Part shown: one piece after another, positions 6,477-20,747 of the stretch | Layout: each line of letters begins with the position of its first letter | Position numbering within the stretch: the first letter of the stretch is position 1 | Translations under genes and position numbers: made by a program | IMG/VR virus record: IMGVR_UViG_3300042339_000806 | Source: a virus | Lineage: Duplodnaviria; Heunggongvirae; Uroviricota; Caudoviricetes | DNA length: 64,000 nt | Direction: 5' to 3' (one strand) | Notes under the pieces: model-generated | Databases searched by the model: none | What the model was told of the DNA's origin: nothing | The model's input: only the letters and a program-made list of their open reading frames with translations

Positions 6477-7367
6477 ATGTCTAAAAAACATGTTGTAGTA
6501 TCCTTAAGTGGAGGAATGGACTCAAGTACATTATTACTTAGATGTCTAAAAGAGTATGATAGTGTAACAGCTATCTCATTTGACTATGGTCAAAAACACA
6601 GAGTAGAGCTAGATAGAGCTCAATCATTGGTGAATTATATAAATTCAAACGATTCTATTGAAGCTAATGGAAGTAATTACATATTTTACCCAAAAGTAAA
6701 CTATCGCCAAATCAAACTAGACGGATTAGTTGACTTACTAGATTCAGCTTTAGTAACTGGAGGTGAAGATGTACCAGAAGGTCACTATGCAGAAGATAAT
6801 ATGAAAGCAACAGTTGTTCCTAACAGAAACAAAATATTTGCTTCTATTACTCAAGCAATAGCTTTATCAGTTGCTCAAAGAACAGGTGAATTTTGTAGTA
6901 TTGCTTTAGGTATTCACGCTGGAGATCATGCAATTTATCCTGATTGTAGACAAGAATTCCGTGATGCTGATGATTATGCATTTAGAATAGGAAATTGGGG
7001 AGCTGAAAATGTAGGGTATTTTACACCTTACTTGAAAGGAGATAAATTTACTATCTTACAAGACGGAGAAGTATTATGTGAAGAATTAGGATTAAATTTT
7101 GATGAAGTTTATAAAAGAACTAACACATCTTATAAACCAATTTGGATACCTGGACCTGAAAGTAACTCAAGAGTAGAAGAAACACTTAGAACTAAATTTG
7201 GAGAATGGTACTCAGATTATAAATCAGCTTCATCAGTTGAAAGAGTAGAAGCATTTATTAAATTAGGAAGAAAAGATCCAGCTCCTTATGCAGACGAAAC
7301 AGGACCAGTAACATGGGAACATGTGGTAGCAGAGGTAACAAAAGTATTAGATAACCATAACAATTAA
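6477..7367 (+). CDS. queC: QueC-like 7-cyano-7-deazaguanine synthase (PP-loop ATPase), atypical C-terminus
   Basis: N-terminus VVVSLSGGMDSSTLL...YDSVTAISFDYGQKHRVELDRA matches QueC SGGxDS PP-loop and DYGQRH. The YPDCRQEF motif is present. The canonical C-terminal Cys4 zinc cluster is not seen; it is replaced by a ~90 aa Cys-poor extension. Confidence 0.65.
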   Translation: MSKKHVVVSLSGGMDSSTLLLRCLKEYDSVTAISFDYGQKHRVELDRAQSLVNYINSNDSIEANGSNYIFYPKVNYRQIKLDGLVDLLDSALVTGGEDVPEGHYAEDNMKATVVPNRNKIFASITQAIALSVAQRTGEFCSIALGIHAGDHAIYPDCRQEFRDADDYAFRIGNWGAENVGYFTPYLKGDKFTILQDGEVLCEELGLNFDEVYKRTNTSYKPIWIPGPESNSRVEETLRTKFGEWYSDYKSASSVERVEAFIKLGRKDPAPYADETGPVTWEHVVAEVTKVLDNHNN

Positions 7368-7371
7368 GATT

Positions 7372-7842
7372 ATGAACGAAACAAACAGCAACTGGCTGAC
7401 AAACAATCCTTGTAATATAACTACAACAGGAATAACAACAGGAACATCCACTATAAACGGATACTCAGGAACAACAATATCCGGAAATTCTACAACACAT
7501 ATAAACGGAACAGTAGGAATGGGATGTATTAATCCTTCAGAAAAACTTACAATATCGGGAACAAACTTTAACCAAGGATTAACCCTACAAGGAAATTCAA
7601 CAATTAATTATTCAACAAATCAAATTCAAAATAACATGGCACCAAGACAAGTACAAGTAGCAGTATTCACAATCACAAGAGATGTAGATACAAATGAAAT
7701 CAATTCAACAACATTTGTAAAAGAATTATGGGTTGAGCAAAAAAACGGAACATCAATCGATTTAATTGTTGCAAAAAAATTAGATAAAGATTTTGATCCT
7801 GAATTTACAATTATTAAAGTACTTTCAACAGTATCTTTTTAA
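7372..7842 (+). CDS. hypothetical Asn/Thr/Gly-rich protein
   Basis: ORF, low-complexity N-terminal half. Confidence 0.3.
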   Translation: MNETNSNWLTNNPCNITTTGITTGTSTINGYSGTTISGNSTTHINGTVGMGCINPSEKLTISGTNFNQGLTLQGNSTINYSTNQIQNNMAPRQVQVAVFTITRDVDTNEINSTTFVKELWVEQKNGTSIDLIVAKKLDKDFDPEFTIIKVLSTVSF

Positions 7843-7910
7843 TAAAAAAGTTGCTCAATTGAATTAAAGTTCGTATCTTTAAGTATTATTAATAACAAAA
7901 GAAAGTAAAA

Positions 7911-8111
7911 ATGAAAAAAGTATTTTTAGTATTAGCATTAGTATCAGCAGTATTAGTGTCTTGTAAAAAAGTAGAAGCACCTGCAAGATTAACAACAGTA
8001 GACTCAACAGCAGTAGTAGTTGATTCAGCATCAGTTGATACAACAGAAGAAGGTGCAATCATTGAAACTGAAAAAGTTCAGGATTCAATCGACGCTGCAA
8101 CCACAAAGTAA
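7911..8111 (+). CDS. small lipoprotein
   Basis: MKKVFLVLALVSAVLVSCKK: signal peptide with a lipobox-like LVSC. Preceded by a promoter motif at 7851-7888. Confidence 0.4.
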   Translation: MKKVFLVLALVSAVLVSCKKVEAPARLTTVDSTAVVVDSASVDTTEEGAIIETEKVQDSIDAATTK

Positions 8112-8324
8112 AACACACCCCAGTAGATAGGTCCGCCAAGAAAGTCTTTAAACAACGTGGGAACTGCGGCTCTCCCAATGTGGCTGGAATGTTTTAAAAT
8201 TACCAATGCTCGCTGTTAATTGAGAAGTAGAGTGTATTAATTTCCGAACAAGGGTTTATAGTAGGAAGGCGTCACTTATTGCACTCAATCAGAAACCCTG
8301 AAAGACCAAGGTTGGTAAAAAAAG

Positions 8325-8409
8325 AATCGGTTAGTGTCAACGGGAAAGTTCCTGCTAGGGTTAACATGGACGATAAGTCTGGATGAGGGTTCGAATCCCT
8401 CACCGATTC
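8325..8409 (+). tRNA. tRNA-like element (class II length, anticodon unresolved)
   Basis: Perfect 7-bp acceptor aatcggt/accgatt, T-arm gaggg-TTCGAAT-ccctc, and a variable-arm hairpin ggac-gataa-gtct. The anticodon stem could not be folded by eye. Confidence 0.35.
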
Positions 8410-8431
8410 CAAATTTTAAGATTACCGTTCT

Positions 8432-8761
8432 TTGAATTTAAAAAACAAAACTATGGAACAAATTTTAGCATTTGTTTTAGGTGTTAGTATAGCTCTTCTT
8501 GTATGGGGAGTTGTGGTAGCGTTTAAGACAGTAAAGAAAGTAAAGCAGATTGAACAAAAGATTGCAGGACATCAAGAGTGGATTCAAAGAAACGATGAGA
8601 TGGTGAATCGTAGAATAGATCAAGAAGTTGATCGAACAAATAATGTCTTCAATGACTGTATCAGACATACAGATTCAAGAGTAGATAAATTAGAACAAAA
8701 ACTTACATCAATTGACAGAAACGGATGTGAGCCAGTTAAAGACAAGTTATTAAAAGGATAA
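8432..8761 (+). CDS. membrane-anchored coiled-coil protein
   Basis: N-terminal TM (ILAFVLGVSIALLVWGVVVAF) followed by a charged helical region. Confidence 0.35.
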   Translation: MNLKNKTMEQILAFVLGVSIALLVWGVVVAFKTVKKVKQIEQKIAGHQEWIQRNDEMVNRRIDQEVDRTNNVFNDCIRHTDSRVDKLEQKLTSIDRNGCEPVKDKLLKG

Positions 8762-8939
8762 ATTAACCCAAAGAACGGTAATTATTAAAAAACTATTATA
8801 CATAATATATTTCATCCCATTACTATGCTATTCTCAGAATATCATAATAGGAGACTCACAAACACCTTACATTGATAAAAATTCAAATAAGGTAGAAAAA
8901 GTAAGCTCTTTATGGAAGGGAGGGATAGGAGTTGATAAA

Positions 8940-9275
8940 TTGACCTCAATGGTTTCAAATTATAAAACATCTCCTAAAGTAAAAAATATAATTTTATGTA
9001 TAGGAACAAATAACAATTTCCGAACAGGAAATATTAAAGAATTATTCAAAGCAGTAAAGAAAACTTTTCCAAATGCTACCATTTATGTAATAAAAGGATC
9101 ATGGGGTTGGGGAGGAAACAAAAGAATAACAGAAGAAAAAGTAAATAATTATTACAAACAATACGAAAAAGAAGGAGGAATCATAATAAATCCAGCAATA
9201 GGAAGAAATGAACCTCACCAGAATTTAACAGTTTATAAAACAATAGGACAACAATTGGATAATATTTTAAAATAA
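8940..9275 (+). CDS. hypothetical protein (possible SGNH-hydrolase-like)
   Basis: IILCIGTNN resembles the SGNH block I. Weak. Confidence 0.25.
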   Translation: MTSMVSNYKTSPKVKNIILCIGTNNNFRTGNIKELFKAVKKTFPNATIYVIKGSWGWGGNKRITEEKVNNYYKQYEKEGGIIINPAIGRNEPHQNLTVYKTIGQQLDNILK

Positions 9276-9510
9276 TTTATTTAATAGTTGGTTTGGAAAG
9301 GAAAAGTTCATATATTTATATATAGAAACAAATAAAATGAAAGCACAACAAAACATACATCAACTTAATCTTACAGCGCAGAGAGCCATTAGTATATGGT
9401 CGGATTCGTTATGTGGAGATGTGATTGTAGGCTTTACGTATAATAACGAACCGAAAAAAGGCAAGACCGGGGTATGATATAATTAACTTATACATATAAA
9501 TTCTAATAAG

Positions 9511-9548
9511 AACCCGGATCAAATAAAAAAGATTCGGGTTTTTTATTT
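9511..9548 (+). terminator. rho-independent terminator
   Basis: 10-bp stem aacccggatc/gattcgggtt (one G-U) followed by TTTTATTT. Confidence 0.6.
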
Positions 9549-9556
9549 AAAAAAAG

Positions 9557-9595
9557 TTGCTAGAAAGAATTAAAGATCGTATCTTTAGGTATATA
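9557..9595 (+). promoter_or_regulatory. Bacteroidetes-type promoter (TTG-N20-TAtcTTTAGGTATA) driving the tRNA array
   Basis: TTG at 9557, box TATCTTTA at 9580, exact 20-nt spacer. Same module seen about 17 times in the window. First tRNA starts 43 nt downstream. Confidence 0.55.
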
Positions 9596-9637
9596 AATAA
9601 AGAATAAGAGTTCATTGACATATTGGATAAAGCATAA

Positions 9638-9721
9638 GGAAGGCGGCCGAATGGACGAGGAGCTTGTCTTGAAAACAAGTAGCGGGTAACACCGTTGTGG
9701 GTTCGATTCCCATGTCTTCCT
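9638..9721 (+). tRNA. tRNA-Ser (anticodon TGA)
   Basis: Acceptor ggaaggc/gtcttcc, D region GGCCGAATGG, anticodon stem cttgt/acaag with loop CTTGAAA, long variable arm, T-arm TTCGATT. Strongly Ser-like overall. Confidence 0.6.
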
Positions 9722-9726
9722 CAATA

Positions 9727-9800
9727 TTGGCTTATAGTGTAACGGTTAGCACAAAACACTTTGACTGTTTTAGTCTAGGTTCGAATCCTAGTAAGCCAAC
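9727..9800 (+). tRNA. tRNA-Gln (anticodon TTG)
   Basis: Acceptor ttggctt/aagccaa perfect. Anticodon stem aaaca/tgttt with loop CTTTGAC. T-arm ctagg-TTCGAAT-cctag. Confidence 0.6.
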
Positions 9801-9808
9801 AATAATTT

Positions 9809-9884
9809 CGGGTAGTAGAGGAGTCTGGTTTATCTCGCTGGCCTTGGACGCTAGAGCACGCAGGTTCGAATCCTGCTTACCCGA
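9809..9884 (+). tRNA. tRNA-Pro (anticodon TGG)
   Basis: C1-G72 start typical of Pro. Anticodon stem ctggc/gctag with loop CTTGGAC. T-arm gcagg-TTCGAAT-cctgc. Discriminator A. Confidence 0.55.
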
Positions 9885-9890
9885 CGAATT

Positions 9891-9962
9891 GCCCCTATAA
9901 CTTAACGGCTAAAGTACTATACTTTTAATATAGGAATCCAAGTTCGATTCTTGGTGGGGGTA
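9891..9962 (+). tRNA. tRNA-Lys (anticodon TTT)
   Basis: D-stem actt/aagt. Anticodon stem ctata/tatag with loop CTTTTAA. T-arm ccaag-TTCGATT-cttgg. Confidence 0.6.
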
Positions 9963-10063
9963 CAAAAGCTACATACACAACCTTACAATCTCTCAGTTAA
10001 AAGCTGTTGTAAGATCAAGTAATAAGCCAATATGCTTGTTAGTTGTGATCAGGTGTAGCACCA

Positions 10064-10134
10064 GCCTCGTTGGCGTAATGGGAGCGTATTTCTTTTACAT
10101 GGAAATGGCAGTAGTTCGATTCTACTACGAGGTA
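10064..10134 (+). tRNA. tRNA-Val (anticodon TAC)
   Basis: Acceptor gcctcgt/acgaggt, anticodon stem tttct/ggaaa with loop TTTACAT, T-arm agtag-TTCGATT-ctact. Compact 71 nt. Confidence 0.5.
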
Positions 10135-10233
10135 CAAAATTCTGGGTAGCAAGTAAAATACCGGCAAGTATTTTCAAGTCTATATGGAGTCTATTATGAG
10201 TTATTAATTTGCCGATGAAAGCTTGTTATAGTT

Positions 10234-10305
10234 TCGTTCTTGGTAGATTGGTGACTACGCTGCCCGCGGAGGGTGGAGAAGCAGGTTCGATTCCTGTAGA
10301 ATGAT
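10234..10305 (+). tRNA. atypical tRNA (anticodon CGG?, Pro-like, G at position 33)
   Basis: Acceptor tcgttct/agaatga, D-stem gtag/ctac, anticodon stem ctgcc/ggtgg (two G-U) with loop CGCGGAG, T-arm gcagg-TTCGATT-cctgt. The loop lacks the conserved U33. Confidence 0.35.
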
Positions 10306-10311
10306 CAAATT

Positions 10312-10392
10312 GGGATGCTTCAGTCACTGGTGTGATAAGCGGTCTGTAAAATCGTTCTGTAAGAAGGTGTGGTTCGATTCCACAGTGTCCCA
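10312..10392 (+). tRNA. tRNA-Tyr (anticodon GTA), class II
   Basis: Acceptor gggatgc/gtgtccc, anticodon stem gcggt/atcgt with loop CTGTAAA, long variable arm, T-arm tgtgg-TTCGATT-ccaca. Confidence 0.5.
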
Positions 10393-10454
10393 CAAATATG
10401 GAATAACATCGCTCCCGTAATGCCATGGCTTGTATACGAGTGACGGGAGACAAT

Positions 10455-10527
10455 GGACCTTTGGTATAGCTGGTGCGTACGCTAGTCTGAAGAACTAGAG
10501 GAGTAGGTTCGATTCCTACAGGGTCCA
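10455..10527 (+). tRNA. tRNA-Phe (anticodon GAA)
   Basis: Acceptor ggacctt/agggtcc, anticodon stem ctagt/actag with loop CTGAAGA, T-arm gtagg-TTCGATT-cctac. Confidence 0.6.
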
Positions 10528-10604
10528 CGAAGTAGAGAGGTATGGGTTCGAGTCCCATCCGGGCCGTTAGCGGCGCGGTAGTATAACGGTAGTAACGCTT
10601 TCTT

Positions 10605-10676
10605 GGGTTTGTCGTATAACGGCTATTACGGATGACTGTTAATCATCTTATGAAGGTTCGATTCCTTCCAGGCCCG
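10605..10676 (+). tRNA. tRNA-Asn (anticodon GTT)
   Basis: Acceptor gggtttg/caggccc (2 G-U), D-stem cgta/tacg, anticodon stem gatga/tcatc with loop CTGTTAA, T-arm gaagg-TTCGATT-ccttc. Confidence 0.55.
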
Positions 10677-10682
10677 CAAAAT

Positions 10683-10756
10683 AGGTAATTAGCTCAATTG
10701 GTTAGAGCACTCGCCTGATACGTGAGAGGTTATAGGTTCGATTCCTATATTACCTA
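10683..10756 (+). tRNA. tRNA-Ile (anticodon GAT)
   Basis: AGGTAAT-TA-GCTCAATTGGTTAGAGC...CTGATAC closely parallels bacterial tRNA-Ile(GAU). T-arm atagg-TTCGATT-cctat. Confidence 0.6.
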
Positions 10757-10761
10757 CAAAG

Positions 10762-10844
10762 GGAAAGTAAATCAACTAGGAGTTGAGACCGCTTGCTAAG
10801 CGTATCGTGCCTTCGGGCATGGGGTTCGATACCTCTGCTTTCCT
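10762..10844 (+). tRNA. class II tRNA, anticodon ambiguous (possibly GCT, Ser)
   Basis: Acceptor ggaaagt/gctttcc, variable-arm hairpin gtgcc-ttcg-ggcat, T-loop TTCGATA. The anticodon region cgcttgctaagcg folds ambiguously. Confidence 0.4.
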
Positions 10845-11161
10845 CAAAAAAACCTCCTCACCGTCCTCACAACGCATCTAAGGAATGCAGGAGAAGGAAG
10901 TACGAACGGGGCCCCGTGGTAAGACACATTAAAATCAGATAGTACAGCGATAGGGTAAGAGGTTCCCTATCAACTACCGACTTGATCTAGGATCGAGAAT
11001 ATCTCATAAGTATTCTCAGACAAGAGCGTAACTTGTAGTCGGTACTAAATTATATGGGTAGGTAGGAAGTTAAGAAACGTTTCTCAAAAAACGACTTAAT
11101 GAGGTAAAGCGTTAGAGTAGTAAAATTGAGTAAGCGTTATTAAAGTAGTATAATTTTATAT

Positions 11162-11233
11162 GGTGTTCGAAGCTTTTTAGTGAAGCGCAAGACTGTGAAT
11201 CTTGAGAAGACGGGGCGGTACCGTCCTTACACC
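11162..11233 (+). tRNA. tRNA-His-like (anticodon GTG), atypical T-loop and acceptor
   Basis: Anticodon arm caaga-CTGTGAA-tcttg perfect, with anticodon at the expected position 34-36. T-arm gacgg-ggcggta-ccgtc has a non-canonical loop. Acceptor pairing is imperfect. Confidence 0.3.
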
Positions 11234-11239
11234 CAACAT

Positions 11240-11319
11240 GCCTCTGTGGTGAAATAGGTAAACACACCAGGCTTAAAACTTGGCGCTCAGGCTTGCTGGT
11301 TCGACTCCAGTCAGGGGTA
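11240..11319 (+). tRNA. tRNA-Leu (anticodon TAA), class II
   Basis: Acceptor gcctctg/caggggt, anticodon stem ccagg/cttgg with loop CTTAAAA, long variable arm, T-arm gctgg-TTCGACT-ccagt. Confidence 0.55.
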
Positions 11320-11408
11320 CAAAAAAATCGCTGATGTCCTCTTTAATTGTTCGACATTGAAGATGTGTAATGATATAAACATCGTAGGTTAAGCGATATC
11401 CTACAACT

Positions 11409-11480
11409 GGTCTTATAGTTTAATTGGAAAAACTTATCGCTACGAACGATAGAACGTAGGTTCGACTCCTACTAAGACCT
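11409..11480 (+). tRNA. tRNA-Arg (anticodon ACG)
   Basis: Acceptor ggtctta/taagacc perfect, anticodon stem tatcg/cgata with loop CTACGAA, T-arm gtagg-TTCGACT-cctac. Confidence 0.6.
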
Positions 11481-11640
11481 CAAAATATAATTACAAAGCG
11501 TAGGTAAGAAGACGTGGAGAGACGTTGCGCAAGGGTACACACTAAGGATAAGTATTTATACTCAACTCTCTAAGGGTGTGTGAAGCACTAAGAAATTAGA
11601 TCCCAGATTCCTGATAAAACTTACTAATTATATTTTAACC

Positions 11641-11712
11641 GCCCTATTAGTTAAACGGATATAACGAATCTCTTCTAAAGATTAATTCTAGGTTCGATTC
11701 CTGGATGGGGTA
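11641..11712 (+). tRNA. tRNA-Arg (anticodon TCT)
   Basis: D-stem gtta/taac, anticodon stem aatct/agatt perfect with loop CTTCTAA, T-arm ctagg-TTCGATT-cctgg. Confidence 0.6.
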
Positions 11713-11718
11713 CAACAA

Positions 11719-11789
11719 GCGGGTCACAGACAAGGTGTCGGTACGGTCTCCAAAACTGCTACGGGTAGGTTCGATTCCTACGGTCTGCG
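11719..11789 (+). tRNA. tRNA-Trp (anticodon CCA)
   Basis: Anticodon loop CTCCAAA identical to the bacterial tRNA-Trp loop. T-arm gtagg-TTCGATT-cctac. Acceptor gcgggtc/ggtctgc with three G-U. Confidence 0.45.
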
Positions 11790-11847
11790 CAAAATTATTA
11801 ATTATGAAAAAGAAATTCGATGCTCATTAGGTTTATTAACCTAAAAT

Positions 11848-12039
11848 TTGAGCAAGATGAGAATCAAAAACTATACTCAGAAAGAGTATAAAAAAGAAAA
11901 AAGAAAACAATCCAAAGATGGTGGAATGTGGTTTGAAGACTATTGGAGTAAATGTAAATCCGGAATATGGGCCTTCAAGTACAGAGAGTACCGTACTTGG
12001 AAGTACAACAGAAAAACACAGTATAAACCTTTAAATTAA
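11848..12039 (+). CDS. small Lys/Arg/Tyr/Trp-rich basic protein
   Basis: 63-aa ORF immediately upstream of the HNH gene within the tRNA island. Confidence 0.3.
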   Translation: MSKMRIKNYTQKEYKKEKRKQSKDGGMWFEDYWSKCKSGIWAFKYREYRTWKYNRKTQYKPLN

Positions 12040-12044
12040 AAATC

Positions 12045-12551
12045 ATGAGTAAGTATCAAAAAGCACTAGTAGTGGATGCAAGCTTTACAGCAAGATCAGT
12101 TATAAGTACCGAACGAGCGTTCGTGATTTTTTATAAGGGTAATGCTGAAGTAGTAGCAGAGCATCCAGAAACATTTAGTTTAATTAATCCTGAACTAACC
12201 ATTTACAAACCTTCTATTATTAGAGTAGCTAAGTATGTAAAACAAAACATTCAAAAAGTACCTCTAACAAGAGAGAATATTTACCGAAGAGATAATTATG
12301 AATGTGTTTATTGTGGTAGTTCAAATCAAAGAATATTAACACTTGACCATGTTATCCCTCAATCAAAAGGAGGAAAAGATGCTTGGGATAATTTAGTAAC
12401 AGCTTGTAGACCATGTAATCATGAGAAAGCAGATTTAACATTAGAGGAATATGGTAAGGAAATTCCAGAACCAAAAAGACCTCATTATTTAATGTTAATG
12501 AGAAGTATGACATACATACCTAAAGAATGGGAAACATTTTTATTCTTTTAA
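12045..12551 (+). CDS. HNH homing endonuclease
   Basis: CVYCGSSNQRILTLDHVIPQSKGGKDAWDNLVTACRPCNHEK is the canonical HNH ββα-Me/zinc motif. It sits inside the tRNA array. Confidence 0.75.
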   Translation: MSKYQKALVVDASFTARSVISTERAFVIFYKGNAEVVAEHPETFSLINPELTIYKPSIIRVAKYVKQNIQKVPLTRENIYRRDNYECVYCGSSNQRILTLDHVIPQSKGGKDAWDNLVTACRPCNHEKADLTLEEYGKEIPEPKRPHYLMLMRSMTYIPKEWETFLFF

Positions 12552-12820
12552 ATAATGGAAGAGTGGAAGCCAGGATATTATGATAAATGGGAGAATTTTA
12601 TTCCTTATGATAAAAAATGGTATTGTAATGAAAATAAAAGAATCCATCAATCAGAAAAGGAAAAAAATAATTGTAAGTATTGCAATAAAGGTTTGGAAAA
12701 CCAGAAATAGTTTCATATATTAAGGTATAAGAAAGTAAAATATATCACCTACTACAAAACGGCGCGCGAAACAATAGAATCCCGACTTGTACTGTCTGGA
12801 AGGTCAGGCTAGGTGAAAAT

Positions 12821-12891
12821 GGGCAGTTGGCCGATTGGTTAGGCACAGGATTGCAAACTCTGTTAGGTTGGTTCGATTCCAACACTGCCCT
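12821..12891 (+). tRNA. tRNA-Cys (anticodon GCA)
   Basis: Acceptor gggcagt/actgccc perfect, anticodon loop TTGCAAA, T-arm gttgg-TTCGATT-ccaac. Confidence 0.55.
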
Positions 12892-12986
12892 CATTTAAGG
12901 TTCGACCCTCTACCAAATGTGTTACACCCACAAATGGACAACGAGAGGGAGCTACCGATTGATAAGTGGCCGCACATGCGGCAAAT

Positions 12987-13060
12987 GCCCGAGTGGTGGA
13001 ATTGGCAGACACGGCGGCCTTAGAAGTCGTAAACTGAGAGTTCGAGTCTCTCCTTGGGTA
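12987..13060 (+). tRNA. tRNA with anticodon TAG (Leu by anticodon) but class I short variable arm
   Basis: Acceptor gcccgag/cttgggt, anticodon stem gcggc/gtcgt with loop CTTAGAA, T-arm gagag-TTCGAGT-ctctc. It is 74 nt with a 5-nt variable loop, unusual for Leu. Confidence 0.4.
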
Positions 13061-13136
13061 CAAATTAGAGTTAGCTTATAGTAAAGCAGCAGGGGCTAAC
13101 CTGCAGAACGGATACGAAAACCGGCTCTAATTATCT

Positions 13137-13210
13137 GCTTCTGACGCACAAATGGTGGTGCACCGGATTTGTAACCCAGAATAGAGTCGGTTCGATCCCG
13201 TCCAGAAGCT
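13137..13210 (+). tRNA. tRNA, probable Thr (anticodon TGT), weak anticodon stem
   Basis: Acceptor gcttctg/cagaagc perfect and D-stem gcac/gtgc. The loop TTTGTAA sits in a poorly paired stem. Confidence 0.4.
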
Positions 13211-13215
13211 CAACT

Positions 13216-13287
13216 GCGACTATCGTATAATGGTCATTACTTCAGACTTCCAATCTGAAGATGAGAGTTCGATTCTCTCTAGTCGCT
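13216..13287 (+). tRNA. tRNA-Gly (anticodon TCC)
   Basis: Acceptor gcgacta/tagtcgc perfect, anticodon stem tcaga/tctga with loop CTTCCAA, T-arm gagag-TTCGATT-ctctc. Confidence 0.6.
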
Positions 13288-13338
13288 CAGGGGTGTGTAG
13301 GAGCCCAAGAGTATGTGATGAGCATACGCCTACAATTT

Positions 13339-13410
13339 GCTGCCATCGTCTAACGGCTAGGACCTATGGTTTTCATCCATAAAATCGGAGTTCGATTCTC
13401 CGTGGCAGTA
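13339..13410 (+). tRNA. tRNA-Glu (anticodon TTC)
   Basis: Anticodon stem tatgg/ccata perfect with loop TTTTCAT, T-arm cggag-TTCGATT-ctccg. Confidence 0.6.
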
Positions 13411-13415
13411 CAAAA

Positions 13416-13487
13416 GGGGCTATAGTGAAATTGGCATCACGATAGATTTGCATTCTGTTATTCCGGGTTCGAATCCCGGTAGCTCCA
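13416..13487 (+). tRNA. tRNA-Ala (anticodon TGC)
   Basis: Acceptor ggggcta/tagctcc with G3-U70, anticodon loop TTTGCAT, T-arm ccggg-TTCGAAT-cccgg. Confidence 0.6.
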
Positions 13488-13492
13488 CAAAA

Positions 13493-13564
13493 GGTCTATT
13501 CGTTCAACGGCTAGGATACTACCCTGTCACGGTAGGGATGAGAGTTCGATTCTCTCATAGACCG
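13493..13564 (+). tRNA. tRNA-Asp (anticodon GTC)
   Basis: Acceptor ggtctat/atagacc perfect, anticodon stem ctacc/ggtag with loop CTGTCAC, T-arm gagag-TTCGATT-ctctc. Confidence 0.6.
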
Positions 13565-13572
13565 CTTATAAA

Positions 13573-13643
13573 CTGCGTTAAAGTGTAAAGGTTGCATCCC
13601 GGTCTCATAAGCCGGGGGGGTGGTTCGAGTCCACGCTACGCTA
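13573..13643 (+). tRNA. tRNA-Met-like (anticodon CAT), possibly initiator-like; acceptor stem poorly paired
   Basis: GC-rich anticodon stem ccggt/gccgg with loop CTCATAA. T-arm gtgg-TTCGAGT-ccac. The 5' and 3' ends do not form a 7-bp acceptor by eye. Confidence 0.35.
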
Positions 13644-13649
13644 CAAATT

Positions 13650-13723
13650 GTCCTTTTAGCTCAGATGGTGAGAGCAGCTCGCTCATAACGAGAAGGTCAC
13701 AGGTTCGAGCCCTGTATAGGACA
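13650..13723 (+). tRNA. tRNA-Met elongator (anticodon CAT)
   Basis: TA-GCTCAGATGGTGAGAGC D-arm, loop CTCATAA, AGGTCACAGGTTCGAGCCCTGT closely resembles bacterial elongator Met. Confidence 0.55.
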
Positions 13724-13787
13724 CTAAATTTTATCCACTATGAGGTCAATTCCTTCGTCTCCAATGTAGGTTAGCTATTGCTAACTT

Positions 13788-14021
13788 ATGACTCAGAAAT
13801 TGAGAATTTGGAGAGTAGTCCCAACCAGCATGACTGGTGTTCAGGCTCCCACGTTTTTTGTAGAAACTACAGAAAATGGTAGAGAAGAAGCAGAAAAATC
13901 TGCAAACCTACAAGCAAGACAAAAATCTCGCTTGGGTAAGTTTAACAATTGGTATTTTGATTTAACAAGAATGAATGTCAGAGTAGACAGACATGGGAGG
14001 TATATCAAACATCACCAATAA
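13788..14021 (+). CDS. hypothetical protein
   Basis: First ORF after the tRNA island. Confidence 0.3.
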   Translation: MTQKLRIWRVVPTSMTGVQAPTFFVETTENGREEAEKSANLQARQKSRLGKFNNWYFDLTRMNVRVDRHGRYIKHHQ

Positions 14022-14088
14022 GAAATATTCGGAGAAAGGTTTGGAAACCTGAACCTTTCTTCTTATATTAAATAAAAATAAAGGTAAT

Positions 14089-14304
14089 ATGGTCTGGTCT
14101 GTATTTAGTATTGAAGTAAAAGAGCAATTAGCATGGACAATACATACTAGACTATTTATGGGCGATCTATCTAATATAGATCTTACAACAGATTGGAGAT
14201 TTTGTGATGTTAAAGGAAAAAGAAGGAATTGTATATTCTTAGGTTTTATTGACAACCCAGAATTTCCATTAAAAGAACCAATAAAAACATATAGAAATAA
14301 TTAA
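14089..14304 (+). CDS. hypothetical small protein
   Basis: ORF fills an otherwise empty 300-nt gap. Confidence 0.25.
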   Translation: MVWSVFSIEVKEQLAWTIHTRLFMGDLSNIDLTTDWRFCDVKGKRRNCIFLGFIDNPEFPLKEPIKTYRNN

Positions 14305-14319
14305 ATAAAAATCATAGTT

Positions 14320-15231
14320 ATGAAAAATTCGTTATCTACAAAAGGGTTATCAATGTCTCAAGCACAATCAATCTCAAACTTGTGCAATCAACGTTCAAAA
14401 GATATTACAGCGAAATTGGCTGATATCAATAACGTTTCTAAAGAACTAGTAATAGGTTCAGAAACCTATGTAGAGACTAATGGGAATCCTATCCCAGTAA
14501 ACGTAGTTGAGCTATTAACTGCTAAGGCAAGATTATCTGCCACTCAAGCTTTCTTGATGGAGAATATCAAAGCAAAGGATGAATTGATTACTAAAATCAA
14601 ATTTGAAAAGTATAACTACGAGGTTGAATCTCCAGAGAGACCAAAACTAATCTCAGAAGTAATTCCAACAGAAGTGGATGAAGATTTTGGTTGGGATACT
14701 TTATCTACAGCCGAATACAACGAATACCTAGAGGCAGAAGCTTATGCTTCACATATCGGACAATTCATCCATAAAGGAGGAAAATTGGATAAGTTGAGAG
14801 GAGAACTTCCTACCATTAAAACTTTAGAGTTTATGGAAATAGAAGTAGGAAAGAAAACTCCTATGAAAGTATCTATTCACCATACAGCAGAACAATTGCT
14901 TTCAGTTCATGAACAATTAGCAGCTCTTCATAGAGGATTTGAACAAAGAGTAAATTACTTTAAATCTAAAGTAAAAAATGCTACTACTTCTGAGAATGCT
15001 AGAATTCAGAAAGAGAGAGGTATCATTCAAGCAAGAGTGAATAACGAGAATGCAGAAGCTGCAAACAATTATAAGTTAGCTTATGATAAGTGGTCTGGAG
15101 AGGAACGTCAAGCACAACACGAGTTTGAAGAAAAACGTCAAGCAAGAATCCAAGAAGCTGTCAATTTAAAAATTGAAGTAGCAGAAAGATTCCAGGACGT
15201 AGTAGATGAATTCTTGAATCAACTAAAATAA
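14320..15231 (+). CDS. hypothetical protein
   Basis: 303-aa ORF with a helical, charged C-terminus. Confidence 0.35.
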   Translation: MKNSLSTKGLSMSQAQSISNLCNQRSKDITAKLADINNVSKELVIGSETYVETNGNPIPVNVVELLTAKARLSATQAFLMENIKAKDELITKIKFEKYNYEVESPERPKLISEVIPTEVDEDFGWDTLSTAEYNEYLEAEAYASHIGQFIHKGGKLDKLRGELPTIKTLEFMEIEVGKKTPMKVSIHHTAEQLLSVHEQLAALHRGFEQRVNYFKSKVKNATTSENARIQKERGIIQARVNNENAEAANNYKLAYDKWSGEERQAQHEFEEKRQARIQEAVNLKIEVAERFQDVVDEFLNQLK

Positions 15232-15864: not shown

Positions 15865-16515
15865 ATGAAACTAGTATTAGAAAAAGGACAGCAATTGTTC
15901 TTTACATCAGACACACATTACTCACACTCAAACATTTGTAGTGCTACTACAAACTGGTCAGTGAATGATGGATATGCTCGTAAGTTTGATTCATTGGAAG
16001 ATATGAACCAAAGACTAGTTGATAACATTAACAACATGGTCGGTGAAGATGATATCTTAATCCATTTAGGTGACTGGTCATTTGGAGGATTTGATAAGAT
16101 TGAAGAATTCAGAAGTCAAATCAACTGTAAAAACATTCACTTGACATTTGGAAACCATGATCATCACATCGAAAGAAACAAAGAGGGAGTACAAAAACTA
16201 TTCTCTTCAGTACAAAACTATTTGAGATTAGAAGTACAAAGACCAATCAATAAAGCAACAACTGAAAAGTTTATTTTCGTTTGTATGCACTATCCAATAG
16301 CGTCATGGCATGATATGAACCAAGGAGTAATTCACTTGCATGGCCACGTTCATTTACCTTCACACCTAAGAATAGCAGAAGGTAAGGCAATGGATGTTGG
16401 AGTAGATGGAAATGGTTTAGAGCCTTTATCATTAGATGAAATAGTAGAATTGATGAAAGATCGTCCAGTTAAAAAATTAGCTTTACCAAAGGATCATCAC
16501 GAAAAGAGAATTTAA
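15865..16515 (+). CDS. calcineurin-like metallophosphoesterase (RNA end-healing phosphatase candidate)
   Basis: SDTHYSH, LGDWSFGG (GDxx), GNHDHH, HGHVH motifs of the metallophosphatase fold. Confidence 0.7.
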   Translation: MKLVLEKGQQLFFTSDTHYSHSNICSATTNWSVNDGYARKFDSLEDMNQRLVDNINNMVGEDDILIHLGDWSFGGFDKIEEFRSQINCKNIHLTFGNHDHHIERNKEGVQKLFSSVQNYLRLEVQRPINKATTEKFIFVCMHYPIASWHDMNQGVIHLHGHVHLPSHLRIAEGKAMDVGVDGNGLEPLSLDEIVELMKDRPVKKLALPKDHHEKRI

Positions 16516-16516
16516 T

Positions 16517-16732
16517 ATGAATATAATATACTCATACAGTCCACAAAAGGTTAAAGAACCTCAATGGTATAAATTTTATAATACTGAAGAGTTTAACATA
16601 ACTACTCAGAGAGATTATACAGCAAGAGCTGCATCTAGGTTAGATCTAATACCAGAACCTAAATGTTTTACTCAAGAGTTTTTACGTAAACATGGAGACC
16701 ATAGTAATATGATGTTAAAAAAGAAAATATGA
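16517..16732 (+). CDS. hypothetical protein
   Basis: ORF, ATGA-overlapped with the next gene. Confidence 0.3.
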   Translation: MNIIYSYSPQKVKEPQWYKFYNTEEFNITTQRDYTARAASRLDLIPEPKCFTQEFLRKHGDHSNMMLKKKI

Positions 16733-17136
16733 AAGAGTTATTTTTATTAAGAGGATTACCTGGATCAGGTAAATCAACATTAGCAGAATCTTTAACAGGA
16801 GGATCTTTTTTTGAAGCAGATCTTTTTTTCTTAGATGAGAAAGGAGAGTATAGATTTGATGCTTCTAAATTAAAAGACGCTCATAAGTGGTGCCAAGATC
16901 GTGTAGAAGCTATTATGAAAGGATTTGGAGCACATATACACCCAGCAAACAGGATTGTAGTGTCGAATACATTCACTCAGGAATGGGAAATGCAACCATA
17001 CTTTGATCTAGCAGAAAAATACAGATACAGAGTTTATTCTTTGATTGTAGAAAATAGACATGGAGGAGTAAACGAGCATGGAGTCCCAGAAGAAAAATTA
17101 GTACAAATGAAAAATAGATTCGAAATAAAATTATAA
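16729..17136 (+). CDS. P-loop kinase, polynucleotide-kinase-like
   Basis: Walker A LRGLPGSGKSTLAESL in a 135-aa protein. Resembles the kinase domain of Pnk/Pnkp-type enzymes. Confidence 0.55.
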   Translation: MKELFLLRGLPGSGKSTLAESLTGGSFFEADLFFLDEKGEYRFDASKLKDAHKWCQDRVEAIMKGFGAHIHPANRIVVSNTFTQEWEMQPYFDLAEKYRYRVYSLIVENRHGGVNEHGVPEEKLVQMKNRFEIKL

Positions 17137-17235: not shown

Positions 17236-18363
17236 ATGGAAAATCAAAATAGTGTTTGCTTTGTAGCAACAATCAAAGAAGTAAAAGCAATCGAAGGAGC
17301 TGACAACATCGAACAAGTAGTTGTTGGAGGATGGAATGCTATTACCAAAAAAGGTGAATTTAAAGAAGGTGACTTAACAGTTATTGCAACTACGGATGCA
17401 GTAATTCCAGAAGCATTTTCTGAAAAAATGGGAGTTACTTCTTATCTAAGAAAAGGAGGTAGAGTAAGAACTGTAAAATTAAGAGGAGTTTATTCTGAAT
17501 GTCTAATCATTCCAACCAAATACATTCCAGGATATGGAGACAGATACCAAGATGGAGATGACATGATGGAAAAATTTGGTATTGTAAAATACGAACCACC
17601 AGTTAAGCAAATTCAACTTGCTTCAGGTAGAAAAATTAAATGGAGAGACAATCAAAACTTCCATATCTACTACAAATTCCCAAACCTTAAAAACGTAGCA
17701 GGAATGTTTACTGAAGAAGATTTAGTAGAAATTACTAGAAAGGTTCACGGTACAAATGCTAGATACGGTATTGTAAAGAAAGGTAAATTATCATTCTGGG
17801 ATAAAGTAAAAAAATTCTTTAGACTAGCTGATGAATGGATTGACTATGAATACATTTATGGATCTCATAACTGTGAAAAAGGAAGTGACTCTCAAGGATT
17901 CTATTCAACTGATGTTTGGAGAACAATCGCTGAAAAGTATAACATCAAAGAAAAACTTTGGAGTTATATTAAAAACAGAAATATTGAAATAGGTGAAGGT
18001 ATTATCCTATACGGAGAGATTTACGGAGCAGGTATTCAGAAAAACTATGACTATGGTTTGACTGATATTGAGTTTGCAGGGTTTGATGTGAAACTTAAAG
18101 GAGAATACGTAAGTACATATGATGCTTGGGTTTTAATTGAAAACCATTTAAAATTACCTTATGTAGAGGTTTTACATTATGGGGATTGGACACAAGAAAT
18201 CCAAGATAAATTTACATTCAACAACTTCATTGAAGGAACTAAAGTACCACATGAAGGAATTGTAATTAAATACTTCACCGGTGAACGTCAAAAGGTAGCA
18301 AAGGTAATCAATCCAGACTATTTGATCTACGGAGAGAAGAATGATGTAGGAGATTCTCACTAA
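17236..18363 (+). CDS. ATP-dependent RNA ligase, Rnl2-like nucleotidyltransferase
   Basis: Motif I KVHGTNARY (KxHGxN as in T4 Rnl2), EGIILYGEIYGAG (motif IV-like), KVAKVINP (motif V K-x-K). An ~120-aa N-terminal extra domain is present. Confidence 0.55.
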   Translation: MENQNSVCFVATIKEVKAIEGADNIEQVVVGGWNAITKKGEFKEGDLTVIATTDAVIPEAFSEKMGVTSYLRKGGRVRTVKLRGVYSECLIIPTKYIPGYGDRYQDGDDMMEKFGIVKYEPPVKQIQLASGRKIKWRDNQNFHIYYKFPNLKNVAGMFTEEDLVEITRKVHGTNARYGIVKKGKLSFWDKVKKFFRLADEWIDYEYIYGSHNCEKGSDSQGFYSTDVWRTIAEKYNIKEKLWSYIKNRNIEIGEGIILYGEIYGAGIQKNYDYGLTDIEFAGFDVKLKGEYVSTYDAWVLIENHLKLPYVEVLHYGDWTQEIQDKFTFNNFIEGTKVPHEGIVIKYFTGERQKVAKVINPDYLIYGEKNDVGDSH

Positions 18364-20516: not shown

Positions 20517-20747
20517 ATGATTTGGATATTATTACTTTACGTTTTACCACTAGTACTTAGTATGTTAGTGGCATATTTCCTAATAAAAAAAGAAGGAGGG
20601 TCAGTAAAAGACTTTTTAGAACCACTTCCTTTTTTATTCATTCCTATAATGAACATTGCAGCCTTAGGAGCAGGGTTAGTTATTTTTATTGAGAAATTTT
20701 TAGAAGAAGATGAATCTTGGCAAAACTTTAAAAACAAAAAACTATAA
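20517..20747 (+). CDS. small membrane protein (2 TM)
   Basis: Two hydrophobic helices. Confidence 0.3.
   Translation: MIWILLLYVLPLVLSMLVAYFLIKKEGGSVKDFLEPLPFLFIPIMNIAALGAGLVIFIEKFLEEDESWQNFKNKKL

Follow-up and report, generated by a model that had tools for sequence, protein, structure and literature searches.

The 64,000-nt stretch of DNA analyzed here (hereafter the window) is taken from the IMG/VR virus record IMGVR_UViG_3300042339_000806 (Caudoviricetes) and carries, between positions 9638 and 13724, a dense array of tRNA genes with an HNH endonuclease gene in its midst (Table 1). tRNA genes were sought with ARAGORN at default and relaxed settings (including -ps80) and with the Rfam tRNA covariance model RF00005, both at its gathering score (29 bits) and, over positions 7800-14400, at a low threshold (E<=10). 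With default settings, ARAGORN identifies 20 tRNA genes, confined to the + strand and to 9638-13724, with none elsewhere in the window, and the covariance model at its gathering score returns 19 in the same stretch, at 33-72 bits. Relative to default ARAGORN, the covariance model gains Thr-UGU (13137-13210) but lacks both 'Pro-CGG' (10234) and Tyr (10312), such that the union of the two scans comprises 21 genes. Relaxed ARAGORN and the low-threshold Rfam search gain Ser-GCU, His-GUG, Trp-CCA, and two tRNAs with CAU anticodons (10976-11045 and 13574-13646), and the relaxed scans also pick up an odd 86-nt element at 8325-8410, outside the array. Leaving this element aside, the array totals 26 genes in 4087 nt (6.4 per kb), made up of 25 probable decoding tRNAs and the tRNA-like gene at 10234-10306, which we term the X-slot gene.

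Fifteen of the 25 gaps between array genes measure 61 nt or less, and the remainder span 75-159 nt, plus one of 1031 nt that encompasses the block containing the HNH gene. The GC content of the array is 41%, compared with 34.7% for the whole window. With 26 genes at 6.4 per kb, the array falls within the definition of a tRNA array unit as it is worded in an excerpt of Tran et al. (2015; PMC4758250), namely a minimum of 20 tRNA genes with two or more per kb. CCA is encoded by none of the 26 genes, and a CCA-adding enzyme would therefore be needed; all 26 have C74 followed by an A-rich trailer. This trailer takes a uniform 'N73-C-A-A' form, usually with AA(A) after C74 (for example, at 9721-9727 and 10134-10140), and may be a processing signal.

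An original prediction, made by reading the sequence by eye, had placed about 26 tRNA genes here, all on the + strand and mostly 5-60 nt apart. The number (26 array genes and, outside them, the element at 8325), the orientation (in both ARAGORN and Rfam), in essence the coordinates, and the close spacing are all borne out by the scans, which returned nothing like the far smaller gene set that faulty manual folds would have implied. Every anticodon that had been named was recovered, including the queried His, Leu-TAG, and Thr, although there are three CAU tRNAs rather than the two originally proposed. Two further points require adjustment: 25 of the counted genes stand as decoding tRNAs, whereas 8324-8410 and 10234-10306 are probably non-decoding tRNA-like RNAs; and the complement, described as near-complete, is in fact complete for the 20 amino acids.

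The 25 decoding genes specify 23 different anticodons and together serve all 20 amino acids. tRNAs with U34 are present for the four-codon boxes of Ser, Pro, Val, Leu, Thr, Gly, and Ala, as well as for Gln, Lys, Glu, Leu-UUR, and Arg-AGR; G34 is found in the tRNAs for Tyr, Phe, Asn, Ile, His, Cys, Asp, and Ser-AGY, and such tRNAs cover the two-codon boxes with pyrimidine endings; and the rest of the set consists of Arg-ACG, Trp-CCA, and the three CAU tRNAs. Among the 68 long open reading frames (ORFs) of the window, the GC content at third codon positions (GC3) is 0.245, and within each four-codon box the A-ending codon is used most often. ATA accounts for 34% of the Ile codons in these ORFs, and one of the CAU tRNAs is thus expected to be of the lysidine-modified Ile2 type, the three presumably being the initiator, elongator Met, and Ile2 species. 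CAU tRNA 'b', which has a 1:72 mismatch and a weak acceptor stem, is a candidate for the initiator, and the canonical CAU tRNA 'c' is either elongator Met or Ile2. The array has an exactly cognate tRNA for 55.5% of phage codons, and 86.3% are read under standard wobble. The result is a complete minimal decoding set that matches the phage's preference for A-ending codons.

To compare the array with those of other phages, related regions were gathered, comprising 80 IMG/VR contigs found via a 303-amino-acid (aa) protein encoded downstream, eight found via a 109-aa protein encoded upstream, and a further 80 metagenome contigs found via the HNH protein; individual contigs or loci are designated by L-numbers (for example, L041). 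The same ordered array recurs in dozens of IMG/VR and metagenome contigs, with the genes occurring in the sequence Ser, Gln, Pro, Lys, Val, (X), Tyr, Phe, Asn, Ile, (Ser-GCU), (CAU), His, Leu, Arg, Arg, (Trp), HNH, and continuing after the HNH gene with Cys, Leu, Thr, Gly, Glu, Ala, Asp, CAU, CAU. While this order is conserved, individual genes have been duplicated, lost, degraded to fragments, or replaced. Contigs of this clade derive mostly from lake and brackish or marine metagenomes.

These alignments bear on the genes of the window that score poorly. Orthologs of the weak tRNAs exceed the ARAGORN default threshold in several relatives, and compensatory stem changes occur in Ser-GCU, His, Trp, Thr, and CAU-b. 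In Ser-GCU, some of whose orthologs pass the same threshold, the changes affect the D and variable arms; in Trp, they affect the acceptor and anticodon stems (nine orthologs), and reading the alignment with its orthologs also fixed the limits of this gene. CAU-b has a covarying anticodon stem (12 orthologs) and is kept even in distant contigs. The His gene, aligned with five orthologs, has noncanonical D and T loops and encodes G-1 (position 11162) and C73, the two features that mark tRNA-His identity. The most divergent member is CAU-a, whose D loop is only 3-4 nt long, whose anticodon stem extends to 8 bp, and whose T loop lacks TTCGA. Nevertheless, across 13 distinct sequences 98.1% of the cells in its helices are paired, with changes on both sides in 10 pairs, a result matched by none of 500 shuffles and contrasting with 24-46% pairing in slid controls; its orthologs exceed the ARAGORN default threshold in L023, L025, and L027. 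CAU-a is thus structurally unusual yet clearly maintained. Finally, anticodon loops are nearly invariant within each family, with one loop in all 47 distinct Gly sequences and one in all 36 distinct Tyr sequences, and we therefore accept the 25 decoding tRNAs as such. Bacterial tRNA-Leu normally carries a long variable arm; the variable loop of the tRNA-Leu (UAG) encoded here is 5 nt.

Table 1. Features of the tRNA array and its flanks, in order of position in the window
Feature	Position	Strand	Basis
tRNA-like element	8324-8410	+	relaxed ARAGORN; 18-sequence covariation
Intrinsic-terminator-like hairpin and T-run	9508-9549	+	13-bp stem, 10-nt loop, -16.2 kcal/mol
Candidate Bacteroidetes-type promoter	9557-9587	+	TTG (-33) at 9557-9559, 20-nt spacer, TATCTTTA (-7) at 9580-9587
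Near-invariant 23-nt box, AGTTCATTGACATATTGGATAAA	9609-9631	+	immediately 5' of first tRNA; 11 aligned sequences
tRNA-Ser (UGA), class II	9638-9722	+	ARAGORN default; Rfam 33.2 bits
tRNA-Gln (UUG)	9728-9800	+	ARAGORN default; Rfam 68.4 bits
tRNA-Pro (UGG)	9809-9885	+	ARAGORN default; Rfam 53.5 bits
tRNA-Lys (UUU)	9891-9963	+	ARAGORN default; Rfam 62 bits
Structured spacer, three-way fold with closing stem, ends ACCA	9964-10063	+	z-score -3.77; homologs in 7 loci
tRNA-Val (UAC)	10064-10135	+	ARAGORN default; Rfam 58.2 bits
X-slot tRNA-like gene ('Pro-CGG' in ARAGORN)	10234-10306	+	ARAGORN default; no Rfam tRNA match at E<=10
tRNA-Tyr (GUA), class II	10312-10393	+	ARAGORN default; best Rfam match is tRNA-Sec model, 37.9 bits
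tRNA-Phe (GAA)	10455-10528	+	ARAGORN default; Rfam 61.7 bits
tRNA gene debris	10529-10604	+	read from sequence
tRNA-Asn (GUU)	10605-10677	+	ARAGORN default; Rfam 58.6 bits
tRNA-Ile (GAU)	10683-10757	+	ARAGORN default; Rfam 72.4 bits
tRNA-Ser (GCU), class II, low-scoring	10762-10845	+	relaxed ARAGORN only
M1 structured RNA module	10846-10975	+	25-sequence alignment; several covarying helices
CAU tRNA 'a', noncanonical cloverleaf	10976-11045	+	relaxed ARAGORN; ortholog covariation
tRNA-His (GUG)	11163-11234	+	relaxed ARAGORN; ortholog alignment
tRNA-Leu (UAA)	11240-11320	+	ARAGORN default; Rfam 54.5 bits
tRNA-Arg (ACG)	11409-11481	+	ARAGORN default; Rfam 64.5 bits
M2 conserved spacer, 159 nt	11482-11640	+	conservation among relatives
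tRNA-Arg (UCU)	11641-11713	+	ARAGORN default; Rfam 58.9 bits
tRNA-Trp (CCA), low-scoring	11719-11789	+	Rfam Sec model, 29 bits; ARAGORN -ps80
Small basic ORF, 60 aa from ATG, isoelectric point (pI) 10.0	11857-12039	+	tblastn
HNH endonuclease gene, 168 aa	12045-12551	+	Pfam HNH_5, HNH; PHROG 16726
Small ORF, 51 aa	12555-12710	+	ORF list
M3 Y-shaped RNA module, closing stem CACCTA/TAGGTG	12745-12820	+	alignment and fold
tRNA-Cys (GCA)	12821-12892	+	ARAGORN default; Rfam 52.8 bits
M4 structured RNA module, highly conserved	12893-12986	+	17-sequence covariation
tRNA-Leu (UAG), 75 nt, short variable loop	12987-13061	+	ARAGORN default; Rfam 57 bits
M5 cloverleaf-shaped RNA module	13062-13136	+	23-sequence covariation; z-score -3.54; 95 loci
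tRNA-Thr (UGU)	13137-13211	+	Rfam 35.9 bits; relaxed ARAGORN; orthologs
tRNA-Gly (UCC)	13216-13288	+	ARAGORN default; Rfam 67.8 bits
tRNA-Glu (UUC)	13339-13411	+	ARAGORN default; Rfam 57.2 bits
tRNA-Ala (UGC)	13416-13488	+	ARAGORN default; Rfam 63.5 bits
tRNA-Asp (GUC)	13493-13565	+	ARAGORN default; Rfam 56.4 bits
CAU tRNA 'b'	13574-13646	+	Rfam 25 bits (below gathering score); ARAGORN -ps80
CAU tRNA 'c', canonical	13650-13724	+	ARAGORN default; Rfam 62.7 bits
Small ORF, 77 aa, directly 3' of array	13788-14021	+	tblastn, 85-100% identity in relatives
Terminator-like hairpin, 14 bp, T-rich tail	14031-14070	+	-18.5 kcal/mol
Metallophosphoesterase, P-loop kinase, RNA ligase	15865-16515, 16729-17136, 17236-18363 (also 20747-21463)		

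tRNA-shaped RNAs and structured spacers

The tRNA-like element at 8324-8410 is positioned two genes upstream of the array. Its 8-bp acceptor-type stem (in the style of tRNA-His, with G-1:C73) and its canonical T arm, which bears a TTCGAAT loop, both covary, and across 18 sequences 11 of the 19 pairs retain pairing through changes on both sides. The interior of the element is occupied by two hairpins whose sequence and loop size (3-9 nt) vary among relatives, and no conserved anticodon arm was found in the alignments of these relatives. Identity calls vary as well: relaxed ARAGORN reads the window copy as Pro-AGG and its orthologs as Leu-CAG, Pro-AGG, or '???', and the copy in Flavobacterium phage immuto is annotated as an 86-nt tRNA-Cys. 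The element is preceded at 8304-8316 by an invariant, palindromic leader (GACCAAGGTTGGT; also written ACCAAGGTTGGT). We rejected the possibility of a miniature transfer-messenger RNA (tmRNA) with a tag frame, because phage immuto does not share the 10-codon frame seen in the window. A match between the 3' half of the element and a bacterial tRNA was likewise considered and dismissed, the sole hit being a 4.9-kb contig of a Lake Mendota Flavobacteriales metagenome-assembled genome (MAG) that looks phage-derived.

The X-slot gene has canonical acceptor, D, and T arms, and its anticodon arm is a stem of 6 bp that ends in a GNNRA pentaloop, residue 33 being G. Orthologs share the body of the gene and carry the loops CGCGGAG, CGTGGAG, CGTTGAG, CGTAGAG, TGCGGAA, TGTGAAA, and GTAAAGG, in which positions 32 and 38 covary from C-G to T-A; this covariation indicates that the arm forms the 6-bp stem with a pentaloop rather than an anticodon loop. 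G33 is present in nine of the 10 versions examined, and T33 in nearly all of approximately 1000 other tRNA gene sequences from these loci. The apparent anticodon varies among orthologs that share the same body (CGG, TGG, TTG, TAG, or TGA), whereas a decoding tRNA would be expected to have U33 and one constant anticodon in a 7-nt loop. An exact-pattern search of IMG/VR for further X-slot sequences yielded two new ones. In L045 and L046 the same slot is occupied by a tRNA-Ile (UAU) gene; a relationship between the two was considered and discarded, as the sequences are unrelated. Judging from these alignments, neither the element at 8324-8410 nor the X-slot gene is likely to decode; probably both are tRNA-shaped RNAs of another kind.

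Two further tRNA-related features were noted. Between the Phe and Asn genes, positions 10529-10604 hold tRNA gene debris composed of a T arm and 3' acceptor strand followed by a 5' acceptor strand and D arm, at a site where relatives have a second copy of the Asn or Phe gene. Separately, some relatives encode a tRNA-like gene after tRNA-Asp that is not found in the window (L004:8686-8764, L017:5366-5444, L020:211-289, and L021:7566-7644); it has an apparent 8-nt anticodon loop (CCTCT-GAATCTAA-AGGAG) and is called Phe-AAA by ARAGORN.

Five of the spacers between the array genes, designated M1 to M5, are conserved in many related phage contigs, several of them to the same degree as the tRNAs, and four of the five covary. 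Searched against Rfam, these spacers gave only chance-level matches to known RNA families (E<=10, 7800-14400). In M1, both sides have changed in six of 18 predicted pairs among 25 sequences, and an additional change noted by eye (GTAC/GTAC to GTGC/GCAC) falls in a helix that would form a possible pseudoknot. The inner stem of M3 has changed from TACAA/TTGTA to TACGT/ACGTA, and where its closing stem CACCTA has become CATCTA, the partner strand follows. In M4, the 7-nt loop TTACACC and a 24-nt single-stranded segment (GAGGGAGCTACCGATTGATAAGTG) are invariant, while the stem bearing that loop and a hairpin on the 3' side both covary; among 17 sequences, 98.6% of cells are paired, both sides have changed in six pairs, and none of 500 shuffles does as well. 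This module is retained in relatives that are poor in tRNAs, including phage immuto, and its motif occurs in 33 IMG/VR contigs. A bacterial origin was rejected for M4, the exact motif being present in none of 185,579 species genomes. M5 has a cloverleaf-like shape, with an 8-bp closing stem and three hairpins, and lacks both a 7-nt anticodon loop and a TTCGA loop; 97% of its cells are paired across 23 sequences, with changes on both sides in eight pairs (0 of 500 shuffles match), as against 19-47% pairing in slid controls. Another structured spacer, at 9964-10063, is found in only a few relatives. On this evidence, we are highly confident that these conserved structured RNAs exist, and several of the spacers are probably released from the same transcript as the tRNAs.

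Genuine tmRNAs occupy comparable sites in some relatives. In the window itself, where M1, M2, and the 8324 element were considered as candidates, no tmRNA is found at the Rfam gathering score, the only weak matches lying on T arms, and the tmRNA calls made by relaxed ARAGORN were discarded because they reuse the arms of real tRNAs. In L041 (7077-7229), a permuted, two-piece tmRNA scoring 53.7 bits, with a tag ending in AFAA, is located in the slot between Arg-ACG and Arg-UCU, and a second is present in L046 (6805-6971). This is the slot held by M2 in the window, and the permuted tmRNAs have no similarity to the window spacer. In L206, a contig assigned to a Lake Mendota Flavobacteriales MAG, a standard tmRNA (83.9 bits; 3815-4174) immediately follows the counterpart of the 8324 element, and it too is not homologous to the window spacers. 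The presence of tmRNAs at these sites indicates that small RNA genes of various kinds find a place in the array across this clade.

Predicted transcription signals, the HNH gene and the neighbourhood

The upstream boundary of the array is marked by a hairpin (9508-9543) followed by TTTTTTATTT, a predicted terminator that closes the preceding gene block. This terminator is kept in 10 relatives with compensatory change in its stem (CCCGG/TCGGG to CTCGG/TCGAG), and it was missed by a consensus scan because its loop measures 10 nt. Immediately downstream is a candidate promoter whose TTG and GTAT(C/A)TTTA elements are also kept in relatives. It resembles the Bacteroidetes sigma-A consensus, which comprises a -33 TTTG and a -7 TAnnTTTG at a spacing of about 19 nt. 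A 20-nt motif of this region, GAATTAAAGnTCGTATCTTT at 9567-9586, recurs at 7861-7880, where 0.02 matches would be expected by chance. Sigma-70-type promoter and terminator scans of the window gave counts no different from those in shuffled sequence. The original prediction had framed the array with a strong terminator and a promoter of its own, and the sequence elements of both are present as described, the stem of the former covarying and the TTG, 20-nt spacer, and TATCTTTA of the latter conserved in relatives. Between promoter and first tRNA lies the 9609-9631 box, most positions of which are invariant or nearly so in the 11 aligned sequences, and which may be a leader or processing signal. 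At the other end, the conserved 77-aa ORF that abuts the array is probably co-transcribed with it, and the next convincing terminator-like element (14031-14062, or to 14070 with its tail) likely represents the 3' end of the transcription unit. A single unit extending from about 9590 to about 14070 is a reasonable reading of these signals.

The HNH gene in the middle of the array matches Pfam families HNH_5 (PF14279; 2.7e-15, 56.5 bits against a cut-off of 27.5) and HNH (PF01844; 2.2e-14, 53.8 bits against a cut-off of 21.4), and PHROG 16726 over nearly its full length (3.4e-33). An HNH gene accompanied by a small basic ORF had been proposed at this site, and both identifications hold (Pfam E about 1e-15; pI 10.0). 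The description of the array as split by the HNH gene does not stand in the sense of a sporadic insertion: its slot after Arg-UCU/Trp is occupied in essentially all related contigs that cover the position, and the gene stays in place even where the array is rearranged or mostly lost, as in the array-poor L016, being missing only from the more distant arrays L047, L049, and L053. None of 46 distinct full-length orthologs contains a stop codon, and the ratio of nonsynonymous to synonymous substitution rates (dN/dS) relative to the window copy is 0.05-0.18 in 45 of the 46, with 0.45 in a single outlier of 70% identity. The sporadic presence and absence expected of a free-standing homing endonuclease was not seen among collinear relatives covering the slot. 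By these measures, the gene is under strong purifying selection and is a long-standing resident of the array, not a recent insertion.

Homologs about 40% identical to the HNH protein (L149-L177, from other phage contigs) are encoded at the edges of tRNA arrays, in reverse orientation relative to the tRNAs, which suggests that this family is tied to tRNA arrays beyond the clade of the window. In L040-L044, the HNH protein is 80-93% identical to that of the window (91-93% in four of the five), compared with 61-62% for the neighbouring 303-aa protein, and in L002 the corresponding values are 81% and 88%. Such mismatches would fit exchange of the gene between phages and also differing rates of evolution. 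The basic ORF adjacent to the HNH gene is a sporadic element, present at 46-98% identity in approximately 13 loci and absent from many others. For the 51-aa ORF on the other side, tblastn found no homolog in related loci, and its status as a gene is uncertain owing to this poor conservation.

Located 2-4 kb downstream of the array are genes for a metallophosphoesterase, a P-loop kinase (AAA_33), and an RNA ligase of the Rnl5/DraRnl type with an N-terminal OB domain, which plausibly constitute an RNA (tRNA) repair trio. Elsewhere, the window encodes QueC (6477-7367), a radical-SAM protein that is possibly QueE (27189-27962), GTP cyclohydrolase I (29517-30224), and QueF (33207-34133); together these form a preQ0/preQ1 (7-deazaguanine) pathway that could serve DNA modification or the synthesis of queuosine in the G34 tRNAs. 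The window further contains genes for a DNA/RNA non-specific endonuclease (28463-29047) and a GroEL-type chaperonin (37631-39265).

Proposed role of the array

Taken together, the segment from 9557 to 14070 is most probably a phage tRNA operon that encodes a complete minimal decoding set. Transcription would probably begin at the host-type (Bacteroidetes sigma-A) promoter just after the terminator, and the transcript would be cut by host tRNA-processing enzymes and its products completed by a CCA-adding enzyme. Some 25 decoding tRNAs, at least one per amino acid, would be produced in this way and, once aminoacylated, would enable phage genes to be translated largely independently of the host tRNA pool, a possibility suggested by how closely the set mirrors the phage's A-ending codon preference. 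On the same reading, the array is old, vertically inherited, and fluid in content within a clade of phages with genomes of approximately 150-170 kb related to Flavobacterium phage immuto.

Several observations weigh against such an operon, or against the independence that it would confer. Standard wobble leaves 14% of phage codons to host tRNAs, and all phage codons are read only if U34 reads all four bases, as it does in Mycoplasma and organelles; full coverage would thus hinge on putative four-way reading by U34. Seven of the 26 genes (Tyr, Trp, CAU-b, the X-slot gene, Ser-GCU, His, and CAU-a) fall below the RF00005 gathering score, and the last four of these have no tRNA match in Rfam even at E<=10, Tyr and Trp matching the related Sec model. 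The odd D or T loops of several array tRNAs may mean that some are inactive or serve a non-decoding role. The -7 box of the candidate promoter ends in A where the consensus has G, and the window shows no clear enrichment of the strict Bacteroidetes motif, which exceeds expectation by about twofold at most (four and five per strand versus about two expected). Close relatives with the same neighbouring genes have only 1-5 tRNAs, and the array is therefore dispensable in some settings. Lastly, a link between array size and the phosphoesterase/kinase/ligase cassette was examined and rejected, given that some contigs with 1-2 tRNAs have the cassette and some with 20 lack it; being independent of array size, the cassette does not tie the array specifically to defence.

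The low scores might be taken to indicate a decaying relic, in which most of the genes are pseudogenes left from an ancestral acquisition and only a handful are functional. The seven genes under the threshold, the weak acceptor stems or atypical loops of some genes, the tRNA fragments at 10529-10604, and the loss of most of the array in some relatives would all fit such decay. However, the helices of the low-scoring genes are kept by compensatory substitutions, as in CAU-a with its 98% pairing and 10 double-change pairs, the anticodon loops of each family (Gly and Tyr among them) are essentially invariant, and gene order is stable. We consequently regard decay as very improbable.

If the array is instead a maintained tRNA operon, its benefit must be sought elsewhere, and the original prediction had proposed compensation of codon usage in a host of different GC content. 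The strong preference for A/T-ending codons (GC3 0.245), the Watson-Crick match of the U34 tRNAs to NNA codons, and the exact cognates available for 55.5% of codons are in keeping with this proposal. Yet the set is complete and minimal rather than a selection for rare codons, and it includes tRNAs for codons that are hardly used: among Arg codons, CGT has a share of 7%, and the remaining CGN codons have even smaller shares. Moreover, the nearest named relative infects Flavobacterium, and the 34.7% GC content of the phage is ordinary for Flavobacteriia, a low-GC group, such that no GC gap is evident; and relatives with the same neighbouring genes make do with 1-5 tRNAs. GC mismatch is accordingly the least supported driver of the array, and we consider it unlikely to be the explanation.

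The benefit of the tRNA operon is more likely to lie in insulation from the loss or cleavage of host tRNAs than in the correction of a GC mismatch. A more specific version of this idea, which overlaps with the preceding interpretation and names its driver, is that the array insures against host defence or shut-off by replacing host tRNAs that are cleaved by anticodon nucleases or lost in phage-driven degradation, with the RNA-repair-like enzymes and the non-decoding tRNA-shaped RNAs forming part of the same strategy. To be fully independent of host tRNAs, a phage would need a replacement set as complete as this one, and the genes just downstream specify a metallophosphoesterase, a P-loop kinase, and a nick-sealing RNA ligase of the Rnl5 type. 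Activities of this kind repair the breaks made by anticodon nucleases in the case of T4 Pnk and Rnl1 and of bacterial Pnkp. The non-specific endonuclease of the window and the polymorphic content of the array among close relatives, which is typical of arms-race loci, point in the same direction. There is also published precedent, in that excerpts of three reports describe phage tRNAs that can counter anticodon nucleases, PARIS, and retron effectors (PMC10264068, PMC11464382, PMC11555353). On the other hand, the repair-like cassette is found both with and without large arrays, and the kinase call rests on the generic AAA_33 family, with no match among solved structures. We entertain a counter-defence role as a tentative proposal, somewhat less likely than not.

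A bolder scheme extends the tRNA operon to non-decoding products. Here the tRNA-shaped RNAs (8324-8410, 10234-10306, and 13062-13136) would act as decoys or competitive inhibitors of host enzymes that recognize the tRNA body, the speculative targets being anticodon nucleases, other tRNA-targeting defence effectors, and modification or processing enzymes. At least three RNAs of other folds (10846-10975, 12745-12820, and 12893-12986) would be produced alongside them, and the fixed HNH gene, whose distant homologs also neighbour tRNA arrays, would, speculatively, have an array-related function and not be a mere passenger. We consider this scheme improbable. Even so, three features of the locus most deserve attention: its conserved RNAs other than tRNAs, its anticodon-less tRNA look-alikes, and the fixed HNH family associated with the array. 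The comparative data presented here are sufficient to define the structures of the embedded RNAs and to plan experiments.

Comparison with known systems

The nearest named relative of the window is Flavobacterium phage vB_FspM_immuto (Immutovirus), whose neighbourhood is syntenic. The two share, in order, QueC, a small lipoprotein-like ORF, the tRNA-like element, a homolog of the 109-aa ORF, M4, tRNAs, a calcineurin-like phosphoesterase, and a glucosaminidase. In contrast to the window, immuto has only 3-4 tRNAs at this site and is without the HNH gene, the 303-aa protein, the kinase, and the RNA ligase; the DNA is about 80% identical over only about 10% of the region. Relatives with one to about 25 tRNAs at the same site offer a natural comparison for the benefit of a large tRNA set, within a clade of uncultured, abundant phages of freshwater and marine Flavobacteriia.

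In the size of its array, the window is more like the cultured Cellulophaga phage phi4:1 (Lightbulbvirus), which infects a marine flavobacterium, a host of the same class. Both have one-strand arrays with about two dozen tRNAs in less than 4 kb, or little more; that of phi4:1 comprises 24 tRNA features, including two annotated as 'tRNA-Pseudo', with a few tiny ORFs between them, and its tRNA-Glu is 92% identical to that of the window. However, phi4:1 belongs to another genus, has a different gene order and no HNH gene annotated within its array, and its DNA is dissimilar to the window apart from a few tRNAs.

More distant parallels are provided by phages T4 and T5. The T4 cluster contains eight tRNAs, the stable 'species 1 and 2' RNAs rnaC and rnaD, and the gene for the homing endonuclease SegB. 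It resembles the window array in being a tRNA operon with an embedded endonuclease gene and stable non-tRNA RNAs derived from the same transcripts, small RNAs that have gone unexplained for decades, and differs in having far fewer tRNAs and in that SegB is a GIY-YIG enzyme of sporadic occurrence among T-even phages. T5 has a large tRNA block interspersed, like that of the window, with HNH endonuclease genes (F-TflI/II/IV) and small ORFs, although its host belongs to a different phylum. According to excerpts of two reports, the tRNAs of T5 rescue infection from the tRNA-cleaving defences PARIS and retron/PtuAB (PMC11464382, PMC11555353).

Because large tRNA arrays are known in phi4:1, T4, and T5, the array of the window is a known kind of feature; taken alone, it is another case of something long recognized in large phages and leaves the field unchanged. 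It is, however, a clean case, in which 23 anticodons (25 genes) would in principle permit translation independent of host tRNAs. It also differs in its setting from the arrays described in the excerpt of Tran et al. (2015), which reside in bacterial chromosomes, whereas the array reported here is part of a phage genome.

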